Made by a program: the position numbers. From positions 1-64,000 of the forward strand of contig JAWLHR010000018.1 of NCBI GenBank assembly GCA_041690295.1: 64,000 nucleotides of DNA, given 5' to 3'. Below, piece after piece: positions 33,001 to 39,000 of the stretch. Positions within the stretch are counted from its first letter, which is position 1, and each line of letters opens with the position of its first letter. This DNA is from Bdellovibrionales bacterium (GTDB lineage Bacteria > Bdellovibrionota > Bdellovibrionia > Bdellovibrionales > UBA1609).

Positions 33001-36000
33001 TAATGACATTAATCAGAACTGCGACAAGCTCGGACAAGATATCGGTAAACAGCAGGGCGATGTGAGTCAGGCCAAGGCCCGTTGTTCCGCGGCCTTGCAG
33101 AAGTGCCAGGACGCGTGCAATCCCAGCGACACCGACGAGAAGACCGAACCCGGGAGATCACAGGAGTCGGCGCAAATCTCGCAAAAGCTGAATGAATGTA
33201 AGTCGGATATCAGTTCCAAGATCGCCCAGCTCTCGGCGGCTTTGGCGGGACTGGCGAAAAACGCTCCGCAAGCGGCCGCCTGTAAGGCCCAATCCGATTC
33301 CGGGCAGCCACAGCAAATGCAACCGCCGCAAAATGCTCAGCCGCAGGACCAGCAACAAAGTGGCAATGAACAAAAACAAGCTTTGAATTGTTACGGCGAG
33401 GAAGGCGCTCGCTACTCGGACTGCAATGCCGCTTACTTGGCGCGCTGCCAATCCGATATGTCGAGTCTTGGATGTGAGGCGTTCGCCAGCCGTTATTGTG
33501 GAACGGCGAAGCCGGGCACGTCCGCCAACGTGGGCGGATCGGCCCATCTGGTGGTTGATAAATCCGGCGAAGGCTTGGGCTCGGCATTTTGCAAAATGGT
33601 CACCGCTTACAACTTTTGTAAAGCCGGTGGTCGAGGGGAATGCCCGAGTTGCCGTGGCATGTATGCTTACTCTTCACCGGCTTGCCAAAATGATCCGTCG
33701 AAGTGTCTGCCCTTTGGCGTGAAGGACTTGAAAGAGGCGAAGATCAAATGTCCATCGGATCCGGTGTTTTTGGATCCCAACGTTTTAAAGCTGGCGGAAC
33801 AAAAGGAATCTGGTGCCGGCGAGCAAGGGGACTATCCTTCGGAAAGGACCGCGGGTTCCGCCGGTGGCGGAAGCGGTGGCAGCGGCATTATTTACGGCCC
33901 CGGTGGTAGCGGCCAAGGTGCCGTCATCGGTGGCGCGGGAGGCACAGGTAGCGGTGTTGGCGGCGCGCTCGATGGCGCCACACCGGAAAGCCGGCCCATC
34001 GGCAGTGCTACGGCGATGACCACCGGTTCCGGCGGCGGCTACTCGAGCCAGGCCGCGCGAAGTGAATCGTCCGAGGATGATTCTTCTTATCGAGCGCCGG
34101 GGTCCGCGGGCCGCGGCCAGACCGTTCTTCCCGCAGGCCCGGTGGCGGGCCTGTCCGCCGACGTGTCCAATCAGTTCGGCCCGAATTTGTTCTCTATCGC
34201 CTCCACAATTTACCGCGACATGTGCGCGAAGGAAAAATTCACGACTTGCGTGAGGAAAAAGAAGTAAGCGTTGCCGGTGGCGGTGGCCTTTTCAGACGAG
34301 TGGCGCAAAAATCACCGGCGCTGCAGTCGAACGCGAATAACTTTCTCGCCTTGCAAGATGAACACAAAATCCTTTGCGCTGAAGACGAACGTAAAAAGTC
34401 CGGGCCCAGAGACCTTTCACGACGAGCACAAATTCACCCGCGCCGGCCAAGAAACGTTGCACAATCTTTTTCGGCTTCGGTCCAAAACATTGCGCAAAGT
34501 TTTTCGGCTTCGGTCCAAAACATTGTCCGAAAATGCCCTCTCAAAAACATCACAAAGAAGTTCACTTCTCACTTTCAAAAACTCATAGATAAGTTCACTT
34601 TTCTCACTTTCAAAAACCTCACAGACAAGTTTATTTTTTCACTCTCAAAAGGCTCACAGATAAGCTTTTTCCTGACTCTCAAATCACCATAAATAATTTT
34701 ATTTATATCATTTTTTTGTTGACGTGGTTTTTGGTTCAATAGAATCGCCCGCAAGCCGCGAATTAAGGTCGATCATCAAGGATCGTGTTCGTGCTCGATA
34801 GCTCGCCGCCCGATGCGGATGACGTGATCTAAATGGCAATCAAACATGAGGTCAATCGCCTGGCCACGATTAGAAAAACCAAGAAAATCGACCCGCAAAA
34901 ATCAGTGGTAATCTCCCTTTGACTTGAAAAAGGAGCGTTCATGAATCTAAAAAATATTTCGGATCAAACGCTTTTGGAAAACACCGAAAAGCTCGTGCGC
35001 GAGGAAAGGGAACTACTCGCGAAAGTACTTCATCACTTGCGTGAAATCGATCGCCGCAAACTGTTTTCCGCACTCGGGTTTAAGTCTCTTTTTGAATACG
35101 CGGTCAAGAAATTGGGTTACAGCGAAGATCAAGCGGGGCGCCGGATCGCGGCCATGCGATTGCTTGAAGAAATCCCCGAAATCGAAGAAAAGATCGAAAC
35201 GGGCGCGCTCACGTTAACAAATGTGGGACTGGCTCAGACGCTCTTTCGAGCCGAGCAGAAGGCTGGAACGCCTCTGCCCAAAGAGAAGAAACTGGAAGTT
35301 CTGGCGCAACTTGAAAACAAATCCAAAAGGGATGCGGAAAAACTCGTTCTAACCCAGAGTGGAGAGCCGACGCGACTGATCGCCGATCGCGTACGGCCCG
35401 TAACCGCTGACAAAGTCGAGATTAAATTCATCGCTGATCAAAACCTCCACAACAAACTTGAACGCTTACGCGGTCTCCTGGCGCATAAGCATCCCAACTT
35501 GTCATTGGCGGAACTGGTCGATCATCTTGCGGAAATCGCCTTGCGCAAGCTGGACCCACTCCAACAAGGAGCCGAGCGATCAAATCCACCCGCGCCGGCC
35601 AAGAAACAGGATGTCAAGCCTCGATTGGAGAAATCTCAGATTGGCCACTCGGACGAAATTCGAGGGCAACAGCACATCAATGTTCAACCCAACAAATCAC
35701 GCGGGTACATTTCAATCGCGATTCGACGAGAAGTTTGGAAACGTGCCGGCGGAAAATGCGAGCACTGCGGTTCAGAGTACGCCGTGCAGATCGATCATCG
35801 AAAGCCCATCGCGAAAGGCGGTTCAAACAATCTCGAAAATCTTCGTCTCCTCTGCCGACCATGCAATCTTCGATCAGCTATCGAGACTCTCGGATTCAAA
35901 TCGATGGAGCGATATCTAAGTTAATGCGCCAGTAACCTTAGACAAAAAAGCCATACCGCTACCCAATATATCCATTACCTGTTGTACCTGCACCTGTCTG

Positions 36001-39000
36001 TCTGTACCTGTAGCTGTACCCGCGCCGGCCAAGAAACGGCACGTCACAAGGCAAGCTTTCCAAGAATCAAAGCAAGCAATACGCCTAAGCCCGGACCGGA
36101 CGTGCGTCTTTAGCGGCGCGAAGGATACGGAGAAGTTCCGCCGGATCCAGTGAGGCGCCGCCGATCAAAAAGCCGTTCACGTTATTGAGTGAAGCCAATG
36201 AAGCGGCATTTTCGGATTTTACGCTGCCGCCGTAAAGGATTGGAATTTTGGGTGCGGCGGCCGCGCTCCATTCCACCAAGAATGTCCGTAAAATTTGATG
36301 GGCTTCTTCCACCTGCACGGGTGTGGCGACTTCGCCCGTCCCGATGGCCCACACCGGCTCGTAAGCCAGCCAAACCGGCAAAGTCGGATCACAATGCTGC
36401 AAGCCCAAACGCGCCTGACGCAAAACCACTTCCGGTGTGCGGTTCCAGCGCCGGTCATCGATCGTCTCACCCACACAAAGAATCGGTGTGATACCCGTTT
36501 TTTGCAAAAACTGAACTTTCTTGGCGAGAAGCTCATCGGGTTCACCGAAAATGTGACGGCGCTCACTATGCCCAACTATGCAAAAGCTCGCTCCCATGTC
36601 TTTAAGAGTTTGGGGAGAATTTTCGCCGGTGAACGCGCCACTGGGCGCAGGATAACAATTTTGACCGCCCCAGCGAAGCGCACAGCCCTTCGCGGTCTCC
36701 GCCACCGCCTGCGCGGCCAGCGCCTGCGGGAACAAAACGATTCGCGCCAGCTCTTCTTCTTGTGCGGCCTCACGCAACGATTTCACGAATTCCGCCGCTT
36801 CGTGCGGCGTCTTGTTCATCTTCCAATTACCGGCGCAAATAAAATCCACTTACCCCTCCCCTGTTCCGCCCTCGAACGGTGTAACCACATTTTCCGAACG
36901 CTTCGGCGCCCGGAGCGCTTCAACTCCCGGAAGTTTATCCCCTTGCAGAAACTCCAAACTGGCTCCGCCACCGGTTGAGATGTGCGTGAACTTATCCGCC
37001 AAACCCGAAGCGTGCGCGGCCGCGGCGGAATCGCCTCCGCCCACCACACTCAGTGCGGATGTTTCAGTGATCGCCCGCGCGATCGCGAACGTACCCTCAC
37101 TGAATTCCGGCGTTTCAAACACGCCCATCGGTCCATTCCAGAAAATCGTGCGCGCGCGCTGAAGTTCTGCCGCGTAAAGTTTAGTTGTCTGTGGGCCGAT
37201 ATCGACACCCATCCAGTCATCCGGGATGTTCACACCTTCAGTGACTTTCACGGAAGCGGTGTCCTTGATGTCGCGAGTGATCTTGTGATCCACCGGCAGG
37301 AGAATCTTTTTATTGCGGGCCGCGGCCCGATCCAGCAAGTCCGAAGCGAAACGGATTTTGTCTTTTTCGACCCGGCTTTTGCCAACCGATTTGTTTTGCG
37401 CGGCCAAAAACGTATAAGCCATCGCGCCGCCGATGATCAGCGTGTTCACCTTATCCAACAAAACTTCGATGACTTCGATCTTGTCGCTCACCTTCGCGCC
37501 ACCCAGAACAGTGATGAACGGTGGTTCGGGGTTCAGGCGGATCCGGTCGAGCATCTCGATTTCTTTTTTCATCAAGAAGCCGAGTCCACGCTTTTCCATC
37601 AGCTCCGGCAGCGCGACGATACTGGCGTGCGCGCGATGGGAAGCTCCGAAAGCATCATTGATATAAATGTCGCTGAAACTCGCCAAAGCCTGGGCGAACT
37701 CCCGGTCGTTCTTTTCCTCGCCCGGATCAAAGCGCAGGTTTTCAAGCAGAATGATCTGCGAGGGCTTCAAACCGGCCAACAAAGCTTTGGTGGCCTCACT
37801 CCGGGGCTCTTCAACCAGGATGATTTCTTTTTTAAGAATTTCATTCAGAGCCGCGGCCACCGGCTCCAGTGAAAATTTTCGATCCTTGGAACTCTTAGGG
37901 CGGCCAAGGTGGGAAGCCAGAATGATCTTGGCTCCCTTGTCGATGGCGTACTTGATCGTCGGAAGCGCCGCCTGAATCCTGGTGTCATCGGTGATGCGGC
38001 CGTTCTCGTCCATGGGGACATTCAGATCCAAACGCAAGAACAGGCGTTTGTCTTCCAACTGGAAATTTTCGATGGATTTAATGCCCTCGAGAGTTTTTGA
38101 TTGCATGGCTTACAAACCTTTTTCACCCATGTAACGGACAAAATCGATCATGCGGCTCGAAAATCCCATTTCATTGTCGTACCACGAGAACACTTTGGCC
38201 ATGTGAGAACCCATCACCATCGTGTTGGTGGCGTCGACGATCGAACTGTAGGTGCTGCCGTTGAAATCCACGCTGACCAGCGGATCTTTCTCAACCGCCA
38301 TGATTCCTTTCAGCGGACCGTTGGCCGCTTGCACGAAAGCATTGTTGATTTCATCGATGGACACCGGTCGCTTCGAACGGAAGACGAAATCCACCAGTGA
38401 AACGTTAGGTGTGGGCACACGAACCGAAATGCCGTCGATCTTTCCTTTAAGTTCAGGAAGCACCAGCCCCACCGCCTTCGCCGCGCCTGTCGTGGTCGGA
38501 ATCATTGAAAGACCGGCCGCACGCGCACGGCGGAGATCCTTGTGGGGAGCATCCAACACTTTCTGGTCGTTGGTGTAAGCATGGATGGTGCTCATCAATC
38601 CGTGCTCGATTTCAAAGGTTTCATGCATGACCTTGGCTACCGGGGCCAGACAGTTGGTGGTGCAAGACGCGTTACTGACCACATCGTGCTGAGAGGGATT
38701 GTAGCTGGTGTGATTGATTCCGTAGACCACGGTTAAATCCGCGCCGTCGGCGGGCGCCGAAACCAAAACCTTCTTGGCGCCGGCTTGAATGTGCTTAGTG
38801 AAATCGTCCTTGCTCTTGAAAGCTCCGGTGCATTCAAGAACCACATCGCAACCCCAGTCCTTCCACGGAATCTCGGCCGGATTTTTCACCGAGCACATGG
38901 GAATTTTGCGGCCGTCAACGATCAGGTTTTTCTCATCGTGGCTTACCGATTTGGCGTACCGGCCATGGGTGCTGTCGTACTTCAAAAGGTGCGCGGCACC

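Follow-up and report, generated by a model that had tools for sequence, protein, structure and literature searches.

The present study analyzes a multi-copy nuclease gene and the DNA around it in a 64,000-nucleotide stretch of contig (the window). The patterns detected are consistent, at a probability of roughly 0.55, with a selfish element whose protein, as a dimer, would bind a site carried in its own sequence and nick there to start one-ended copying. The parts of this reading differ in strength: that the unit is mobile and requires its own protein is quite probable, binding of its own site by the protein is somewhat less so, and nick-primed, one-ended copying is a tentative proposal. The element, of ~1.2–1.8 kb, is provisionally placed in the DUF222-HNH (REP13E12) family, as a branch found in Bdellovibrionota; its movement would involve no transposase of the DDE, HUH, serine or tyrosine type, it occupies unrelated intergenic spots, and it has a DNA signal inside its linker-coding region (Table 1). 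What is new is its anatomy and the mode of movement proposed for it, the protein family itself being already catalogued. The initial annotation had read these genes as selfish, duplicating nuclease cassettes, a view strengthened here by empty orthologous sites, a bounded duplicated unit and purifying selection; its account contained no ribbon-helix-helix (RHH) domain, no two-box leader of fixed length and no bounded unit.

Table 1. Coordinates of the element, its parts and its neighbors in the window
Feature	Position	Strand	Basis or remark
Left host gene, next to insertion	32951..34267	+	no Pfam match
Entire insertion, lying between two host genes that converge	34268..36084	.	flanking genes adjoin in 8/16 same-genus loci
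Left array, two ~60-nt units, each opening with a degenerate half-site	34307..34428	+	sequence
Leader copy of linker site	34429..34455	+	26/27 nt identical to ORF copy
Tandem array, eight 26–35-nt units, begins within leader site	34444..34706	+	
Left box: AT-rich tract, TTGACG (34719–34724), T-tract; UP/-35-like, no -10 at 17 nt	34707..34732	+	
Spacer, fixed length, unalignable between lineages (27% identity)	34733..34880	.	
Right box: A-tracts, TG, TAATCT (34909–34914); extended -10, 190 nt from TTGAC	34881..34914	+	
RBS-like AAGGAG	34930..34935	+	sequence
327-aa ORF: dimer helix, ParB-like HTH, RHH, linker, HNH	34941..35924	+	
ParB/KorB-like DNA-binding domain, aa 21–145	35001..35375	+	predicted-structure fold matches
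RHH domain, aa 156–207	35406..35561	+	fold match
Internal site in linker-coding DNA (PPAPAKK), synonymous positions frozen	35581..35607	+	
HNH nuclease domain	35715..35906	+	Pfam HNH, E 4e-11
Low-complexity ACCTGT-like run, ahead of tail site	35974..36017	+	sequence
Tail copy of site, same orientation	36018..36037	+	
Right host gene, next to insertion	36085..36849	-	taken to be tpiA, from sequence motifs

Positions 34268–36084 form a lineage-specific insertion in the window, and at same-genus tpiA loci the flanking genes adjoin in 8/16, with another insert in one and another neighbor in seven. Genomes G150 and G101 were compared at five loci, of which three were empty in G101 with both flanks matched, one was empty on the single flank compared, and the fifth retained an HNH-tail remnant; because of this remnant, deletion is also a source of fragments. 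Empty orthologous sites, left aside in the initial annotation, were thus found in both comparisons. Neither a site copy nor a target duplication was seen at the junctions of the four G101 loci without the element, and the window repeats and G041 alignments (by eye), like the G150/G101 junctions, lacked terminal inverted repeats and target duplications.

A search of the genome with tblastn found six open ORFs (C18, C1a, C1c, C27, C5, C2), as had been claimed, and six broken or partial copies, two of them at contig ends, where five fragments had been counted; the C27 copy, previously called intact, lacks ~32 aa of the RHH. The family extends to 3,523 clusters (50% identity) with E≤1e-30. As a side observation, such a small jumping-gene-like unit is common in predatory bacteria. 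In seven G041 paralogs (80–86% nt), which lie in unrelated contexts, the unit in common spans about -254 to stop+4; recent paralogs thus share a unit that opens near -255 and closes at the stop codon, and unit ends in other genomes are similar, the left end lying 25–60 nt upstream of the TTGAC box. The left end is marked by a site copy in G150 (10/10 aligned), G043 and G051; the exact left-end site is absent in 6/7 G041 copies, and a leader copy in 14/21 scorable loci. Partial copies appear to start at the 5′ edge of the site and extend 3′. Among ten non-ORF copies in G041, identity was 0.20–0.47 left of the site (one 0.63) and 0.67–1.0 right of it, compared with a left-of-site identity of 0.67–0.83 (one 0.40) between ORFs. 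Solo copies in G043 have only a 21–23-nt core in common, so that G041 is the single genome where one-endedness is clear. Purifying selection acts on all domains, as a host function would also bring about; dN/dS in the seven copies of G041, the one genome on which it is based, was 0.065 for the HTH, 0.097 for the RHH, 0.071 for the HNH and 0.40 for the linker. The closest copy pairs were ~90–91% alike, with no near-identical recent pair among the paralogs compared.

Exact copies of the 20-nt site ACCCGCGCCGGCCAAGAAAC are found at 34436, 35588 and 36018, i.e. in leader, ORF and tail as first reported, while shuffled windows gave a mean of 0.01 and none of 100 reached three. Two further observations were reproduced, that the same 19-mer recurs elsewhere in the genome (C27:13654, C27:14688 and a C1 fragment) and that the C2 and C1c copies each have their own site common to ORF and flanks. 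The sites had been described as copy-specific and palindromic; they are subfamily-specific, as C18, C27 and the fragment on C1 have one in common, and the window site is only a half-palindrome. The dispersal of ACTTCCGAATCGGAAGT was borne out, with a revised count of 14 places (≤1 mismatch, both strands), 11 of them outside crudely called ORFs, in place of 12. Dispersed intergenic repeats also flank the gene, 12/13 and 11/14 copies of two sites lying outside called ORFs. The linker site lies in frame and has stayed frozen among lineages <70% identical, and because its alanine codon is GCG in 26/28 cases against 396/1251 elsewhere (32% background), it is constrained as DNA. Of the earlier pattern of ORF and flank sites, the ORF site is a general feature and the flank copies are optional: the own site was in the leader at 7/21 dereplicated loci with a scorable leader, compared with 0/38 control windows, and in four of these seven the own variant outscored all 24 others. 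Site class required 11 changes on the protein tree versus 35.2 when shuffled, in a quick tree where 49/121 proteins had no classifiable site and kin share labels. Recognition-helix residues change together with the site in three pairs (L063/L073, L201/L202 and L047/L054), and we infer that the site would be bound by the ParB-like HTH.

The ParB/KorB-like fold proposed earlier was recovered, again at middling scores (6s6h, Z 6.9, rmsd 3.5, 101 aligned; 8qa8, Z 6.3; 1r71 and 1vz0, Z 5.3 each; 3vwb, Z 4.5), and Foldseek with the protein model once more gave no match at E≤0.001. The RHH region matched the TraM N-terminal domain (Z 6.4, rmsd 2.9, 48 aligned, on a single-sequence model of pLDDT 63), followed by NikR, PutA52, Arc and MazE-type entries, and it forms part of the predicted dimer interface. 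The homodimer model scored 0.75 against 0.00 for the best control, with contacts agreeing at least 94% and pLDDT at least 83; the mark used was reached by 20/30 solved pairs and 1/23 single chains. Residues C273, C276, D285, H286, N300, C305, C308 and N309 of the HNH are invariant in 34 homologs. Pfam and NCBIfam reported only HNH for the protein, with no HUH Y2 transposase; Pfam had no match to Y1_Tnp (PF01797) or to a CTPase domain, for which the model leaves no room (helices 8–139, then RHH), and no RuvC match was found in the protein. DUF222 (PF02720) did not match the window protein at E≤1 and matched 3/34 homologs weakly (best E 0.038); the C2 copy of G000 reached 20.3 bits with a cut-off of 24.4, which was passed in 11/251 genomes of the phylum, G150 copies included. 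The window protein is probably a distant DUF222/REP13E12 relative.

The spaced two-box leader is the most conserved cis feature of the element. From the -35-like box to the extended -10 it measures ~170, 180 or 190 bp, bands that hold 146/150 among the matches listed; as a divided promoter, its halves would be kept apart by ~147, 157 or 167 extra bases, near 14, 15 and 16 helical turns. A promoter scan of the leader found no canonical promoter, and the left box was rejected as an ordinary one, having no -10 at 16–18 nt; an apparent 11-bp repeat pattern in the spacer was traced to the boxes and had no support in the inner middle. The same module stands upstream of some IS66 transposases, in a single-ORF subset at 188–191 bp and starting ~43 nt inside the IS66 left end, although IS66 has an unrelated DDE transposase with terminal repeats. 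It was found in 0/4 cultured plasmid-borne IS66 relatives checked, and viral contigs with the leader motif were mostly low-scoring, with the HNH family downstream in 0/27. The layout fits no described mode of movement, and literature searches, covering few subscription papers, found no account of element or leader. A -35 and extended -10 at such distances before unrelated mobile genes point to an undescribed host-read control module.

Under our preferred reading, a protein dimer would reach its clade-specific site through the ParB-like HTH, the RHH serving mainly for dimerisation, and the tethered HNH would nick at the 5′ edge of the site. Host repair synthesis could then displace a strand that starts at the nick and has a variable 3′ end, and its reinsertion would leave solo sites, fragments of site plus tail, and tandem arrays; copying that begins at a left-end site and passes the stop would produce a full new copy, with a tail later eroded to the stop codon. 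With site copies close to the promoter, the protein may also repress itself. The two-box leader would be read by host proteins, not by the element's own, and is most likely a phased DNA loop controlling or licensing transcription. It is unlikely but not remote that DUF222-HNH genes form a new mobile class, multiplying through HNH nicking at an ORF-internal origin and seeding REP-like repeats, and that their promoter is a genuine sigma-70 promoter split into two parts; RNA polymerase would engage both parts only when a host complex loops or wraps out the fixed length between them, which would make it a host-state switch also adopted by IS66 and other mobile genes.

An alternative explanation, which we consider unlikely but not negligible, is that these nucleases serve the host (digesting prey DNA, in defence or in programmed lysis) and became multi-copy through ordinary recombination and gene transfer, with the site only an autorepression operator and solo sites decayed or deleted copies. 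Purifying selection, the age of the copies (~70% nt in G150), the deletion remnant in G101 and the repressor-like combination of an HTH, an RHH and a site close to the promoter of the gene are consistent with this, but it would not account for a copy number of 0 to 15 per genome within one order, a C2-type query matching in only 63/151 genomes, copy positions differing between close relatives, half of this genome's copies being broken, the leader in common with IS66 transposases just inside their left end, or the fixed starting point of partial copies. It is improbable that the element moves as an excised or rolling circle with the internal site as origin, perhaps as a phage-carried minimal satellite with the 170–190-bp module for attachment or packaging. 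The top fold match of the protein is a phage HNH (5h0o, Z 8.4), RHH plus nickase resembles a relaxosome, as the TraM match does, and strict phased spacing suits a synaptic complex; however, permuted copies were not seen, 50,697 phage records had no family match, and plasmids and viral contigs had one HNH-only match each. Phage or plasmid residence was rejected on these searches; one plasmid searched for an actinobacterial member had no DUF222 locus. Spacer excision through direct repeats also failed (identity at the 17-nt register just 0.285), and four runs of contigs, which are short, showed no empty-site or circle joint.

It is very doubtful that a RAYT transposase spread the sites, as REP-like units, into a tolerant linker and the flanks of an ordinary duplicated gene. 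The genome has seven Y1_Tnp matches (none in the element protein), solo sites are mostly intergenic, some adjoin REPs, and one on C14 precedes a Y1_Tnp gene by 198 nt, but the true RAYT (C6:63302-63944) has another REP, with GTAG, at its flanks, matches to the linker of an HNH paralog were found for five site families, the in-frame site is frozen between diverged lineages, and site class tracks the HNH protein tree. An element guided or mediated by RNA (IscB/HEARO-like), whose leader would act as a structured guide RNA or as a single-strand hairpin promoter, has similarly little probability. A multi-copy HNH ORF behind a conserved ~250-nt leader would fit, and the HNH domain alone is IscB-like (37.8 bits, cut-off 175); against this, seven leaders had no covariation on either strand (double changes in 1/42 and 3/40 pairs, covariation term unfavourable), Rfam gave a chance match alone, the boxes are not complementary beyond consensus, DNA fold z was -0.26 and -0.43 with a proper shuffle, the spacer is unalignable, and RuvC is unmatched. 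A crude shuffle had given a hairpin z of -1.9, which shrank to -0.26.

IS91/ISCR rolling-circle transposons have no terminal inverted repeats, no target duplication, and one fixed and one variable end. The element resembles them in its lack of terminal inverted repeats and target duplication; one fixed and one variable end are clear in G041, whereas G043 shows the core alone. It has no HUH Y2 transposase, a fixed point also inside the ORF, and ragged insertions with filler DNA. Homing endonucleases with an HNH nickase and self-repression include I-HmuI, MobE and I-TevI. These likewise join a DNA-binding domain to HNH with a site copy near the own promoter, but the element has no intron or intein, keeps its site intact in the gene and occupies unrelated loci, and homing into pre-existing sites was rejected because the four G101 loci without the element had no site copy at the junction. 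The element's protein resembles ParB/KorB/VirB and TraM-type RHH proteins in predicted fold, at middling scores, and, in several clades, has palindromic sites of similar length; it differs in having no CTPase domain, a fusion to RHH and HNH, and no ParA neighbor in the window. It differs from classical DDE insertion sequences in the absence of terminal inverted repeats and target duplication, and from IscB/HEARO (OMEGA) in the absence of a RuvC match, leader covariation and an Rfam match. Like the element, DUF222/REP13E12 of mycobacteria has multi-copy genes whose products are helical in their N-terminal part and have an HNH at the C-terminus, and G150 copies exceed its cut-off, although the window protein falls below it; REP13E12 is catalogued as a repetitive element class in PMC10589994, and no mechanism, internal site or leader module was found in print. 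In RAYT-REP/REPIN systems, as in the element, a nuclease gene has short and often palindromic repeats on its flanks, which also occur scattered between genes and sometimes form inverted doublets and arrays (PMC3337134). Compared with that description, the element has HNH rather than HUH tyrosine chemistry, a gene that is itself multi-copy, a repeat within the ORF and no GTAG foot.

The family now has defined ends and a candidate binding site whose sequence changes along with the recognition helix, so that with a hop assay the spread of DUF222-HNH genes becomes testable, and its naturally varied HTH-site pairs, each joined to a small HNH, could serve as a source of site-specific nickases. In the window, the first unit of the left array is identical to the site head at 13/20 positions. 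Adjacent units of the eight-unit array are alike at 16–26/33, unit 2 matching unit 1 at 22/33 and later units at 13–16/33. A near-identical strain (run X2) has an extra unit in the left array, with a joint from 34397 to 34376 and 40 extra letters, on one contig at depth 4.6.

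The element is an insertion with defined bounds. The host genes on its flanks lie directly side by side in 8 of 16 loci from the same genus, with a different insert in one and another neighbour in seven, and the HNH family was absent within 1.5 kb from all 29 other loci compared. Seven paralogs in one relative's genome (G041; 80–86% identity) have in common a unit from about -254 to stop+4 and lie in unrelated contexts; their dN/dS was 0.065 in the HTH, 0.097 in the RHH, 0.071 in the HNH and 0.40 in the linker. Element ends were similar in other genomes, but with longer common tails in G063 and G173. 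Five loci of G150 were checked against G101, a close relative: at three the element was missing and the flanks were separated by 15, 77 and 140 other bases, at one it was missing on the only flank matched, and one retained an HNH tail; no junction carried either a site or a target duplication. Terminator-like hairpins or the end of a tRNA adjoined the filled loci, which also contained extra DNA bearing microsatellite runs. Such runs or short tandem arrays occur repeatedly beside elements (window 35974–36017; loci L198, L266, L303 and L324; the tail of the C25 paralog), suggesting slippage synthesis at breaks. Copy number was patchy, the C2 type occurring in 63 of 151 genomes of the order with up to 15 copies and the C1c type in 26 of 151. 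Phage and plasmid collections yielded HNH-only matches and not the element.

An initial annotation had placed the same site in the leader, reading frame and tail of the window gene, and this proved exact at all three positions; three matches of the 20-mer in the window were reached by 0 of 100 shuffles.

Coordinates of the reading frame and of the internal site in the window
Feature	Position
ORF, 327 aa	34941-35924
20-mer ACCCGCGCCGGCCAAGAAAC, three copies	34436, 35588, 36018

The genome carrying the window contig (C18) is 2.88 Mb, and its homologs are labelled Bdellovibrionota. It has six open HNH paralogs, named here by contig, and six broken or partial ones, with a linker site in five subfamilies. 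CACCCGCGCCGGCCAAGAA is common to C18, C27 and a C1 fragment and occurs at 7 places (≤1 mismatch); the C2 site, ACTTCCGAATCGGAAGT, occurs at 14 places, 11 outside called ORFs; the C1c site, GTCCCGGGAC, at 13, 12 outside called ORFs (expected 2.2); that of the C11 fragment, GTGCCCGGGCAC, at 7, 5 outside called ORFs (expected 0.09); and C8/C25 carry another site, found at 3 places. ORF-flank comparison gave no match above 12 nt for C1a, C5 and C8a. The sites are thus genuine and specific to subfamilies, though not palindromic in every case; the earlier description of them as copy-specific stands as to their recurrence but not as to that adjective, C18, C27 and the C1 fragment sharing one. Paired HNH-type sites also bracket unrelated, slightly lower-GC genes (C1:100856/101540, C1:244537/245365 and C6:10135–11958), which look cassette-like, and cargo capture is possible. 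The C5 paralog has a 243-bp direct repeat (90%) on both sides (C5:110596–110836 and 112194–112436); a 22-nt motif contained in this repeat is found at 10 places across the genome. An open ORF at C27:14054–14965, behind a tRNA-like gene, lacks about 32 aa of the RHH and keeps the leader module and both sites.

Among relatives, codon use points to the site being a DNA signal. An xAP linker motif was present in 28 of 51 homologs (<70% identical), and its Ala was encoded by GCG in 26/28 versus 396/1251 elsewhere; Ala/Pro columns conserved outside the linker had mixed codons. Exact ORF-flank matches of at least 14 nt were found at 21 of 79 loci, 18 of the 21 in the linker. With a seed filter passed by only 42 of 73 ORFs, a leader copy (≥16/22) was seen at 7 of 21 dereplicated scorable loci versus 0/38 control windows, and a tail copy at 1 of 25. 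Of the 17 site copies in G041, 7 lie in ORFs; the other 10 are partial, start no more than about 8 nt 5′ of the core (about 25 nt in one case) and extend 20–289 nt 3′; two resume after a deletion and reach the element's 3′ end. Non-ORF copies in G043 had the core only in common. The left end was marked by a site copy in G150 (10/10 aligned) and in G043, and in G051, with about 65 copies in the genome, by arrays of one to four. Stand-alone site arrays in G051 (L173 and L174; periods 84 and 77 nt), mistakable for CRISPR arrays, have spacers that are tandem duplicates. The window's leader site has tandem arrays on its flanks, and an additional left array unit is present in a near-identical strain (single contig, depth 4.6). 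Site class follows the N-terminal tree (11 changes versus 35.2 shuffled, on a quick tree with 49 of 121 rows unclassified), and the recognition helix changes where the site changes; this apparent co-variation is suggestive only, because kin share labels.

The AlphaFold model of the 327-aa protein had a pLDDT of 85. The previously proposed match to a ParB/KorB-like fold was reproduced, five ParB-family DNA-binding domains matching residues 21–145, but at a middling Z of 4.5–6.9 and with nothing significant from Foldseek of the model. Residues 156–207 are predicted to be a ribbon-helix-helix (RHH), TraM being the best match (Z 6.4), then NikR, PutA52, MazE and Arc types, on a weak single-sequence model. 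HNH residues were invariant in 34 homologs. Residues 1–212 gave a predicted homodimer via helix 8–39 and the RHH, scoring 0.75 versus 0.00 for the best control (contacts agreeing ≥94%, pLDDT ≥83); solved pairs attain this mark in 20 of 30 cases and single chains in 1 of 23. Since solved structures include many RHH dimers, resemblance to them may account for the pass. The window protein falls below the cut-off of the DUF222 profile, which is exceeded in 11 of 251 phylum genomes and carried by 12–23% of neighbouring Atlas clusters; the HNH family appears to be a distant DUF222 branch. One gene (L023) groups with Bdellovibrionota copies though its record is labelled Streptomyces, probably a mislabelled bin; in its leader a deletion extends down to the left box.

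The leader module joins a -35-like TTGAC box, in an AT-rich tract 205–262 nt upstream of the start at 30 of 43 loci, to an extended -10 some 40 nt ahead of the start. The distance between them was 187–191 in 26 of 27, with 27% identity between lineages in the spacer. Matrices trained on 23 relatives located four box pairs at 190 in the window's genome, 4/4 upstream of the HNH family and one of them at 34719; its C1a, C1c, C2 and C5 copies were without the pair. When distant subfamilies (≤39% identical to the training set) were scanned, the spacing matched a 170/180/190 ladder at 42 of 60 loci versus 0/172 control windows. A pooled search confined to 165–195 placed 78 of 110 loci at 170.3±1.2 (21), 179.7 (3) and 189.4±1.0 (54), and 48 of the 78 have the final T of the -10, a base that the matrix does not cover. 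Scanning 301 genomes for the motif without regard to the protein yielded 193 matches versus 13 with the pattern reversed; among the 150 matches listed, 64 lay at 169–173, 12 at 178–182, 70 at 187–192 and 4 elsewhere, and the HNH family was directly downstream in 22 of 30 fetched loci. Control spacings in 121 genomes gave 0 matches at 135–164 and 3 at 195–224. The extra length over the normal 23-nt spacing, about 147, 157 and 166 bases, is near 14, 15 and 16 turns, with a step of 9.5, below 10.5. These lengths resemble those of nucleosomes, and histones are present in Bdellovibrio, a lead only. The left box has no -10 at 17 nt. A leader acting as RNA or hairpin was ruled out by RNA/covariation and DNA-fold analyses, and spacer excision by direct repeat was rejected, no such repeat occurring in the excision register.

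In metagenomes the two-box pattern, which itself fixes the spacing at 188–191, gave at least 120 matches, with 83 distinct high-scoring modules among the matches listed: 57 preceded ORFs that were IS66-like by motif, 19 preceded others and 7 had no ORF. Of 12 picked downstream proteins, Pfam assigned five to IS66 and one each to integrase, ERCC4 and HNH, leaving four unassigned. In 27 of these 83 listed modules TTGAC was preceded, 42–45 nt upstream, by a GTAA start of the kind typical of IS66 left ends; four cultured IS66 relatives were without the module. Overall, the leader was seen upstream of many IS66 transposases, of Bdellovibrionota Y1_Tnp-like genes and of one tyrosine integrase (metagenome contigs L355–L474; L437, L526, L374). 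The module is common to unrelated mobile genes, whereas HTH, RHH and internal site differ; we therefore infer a host factor that reads it.

Our preferred interpretation of these patterns is a selfish element, to which we give a probability of roughly 0.55, whose protein dimer would bind its own clade's site and nick at the 5′ edge, host synthesis then displacing a strand of variable length as the copy. Nicking with a displaced strand would account for fragments with a fixed start and arrays beginning at the site, for ragged insertions without target duplication, and for a right end eroded as far as the stop codon. Small HNH domains of related type act as nickases with site and strand specificity (PMC3592412). 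The weak points are that the exact left site is absent from most G041 copies and that tails arise by deletion too; no very recent hop was seen. An autoregulated nuclease serving the host is an unlikely alternative explanation, and a circle or satellite somewhat less likely still. Repeats spread by a RAYT would be very improbable, the RAYT of the window's genome having another repeat on its flanks, and we hold an RNA-guided element equally improbable.

IS91-type elements copy from one end, and the HNH element would resemble them in this but does not belong among them, nor among DDE IS, homing endonucleases or IscB. Nick-and-copy spread as proposed here would work most like the RAYT-REP system (PMC3337134) crossed with that one-ended copying, but the element is not a member of that system. 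REP13E12/DUF222 is presented as a repeat class in two papers (PMC10589994, PMC2323391), with no mechanism found there, and a literature search, with most subscription papers outside its coverage, found neither the internal site nor the spaced leader described in print. The observation is real; the protein family is already catalogued and the anatomy of the element is new. The RAYT-like gene of the window's genome lies between inverted REPs (C6:63262–64080) of a classical GTAG-type REP/REPIN family, present at about 40 intergenic places.

The junction that holds the window's element may be an insertion hotspot, because the closest relative (L081, in G005) has another insert there, about 450 bp long. 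On the window's 32951–34267 lies a gene for a Gly/Cys-rich protein without Pfam match, whose tail-to-tail arrangement with tpiA is conserved in the genus. A 98-nt repeat at 2–99 adjoins tRNA-Met (110–186), and contigs C6, C8 and C20 also carry it at their ends; it probably marks one end of a mobile element that did not assemble.
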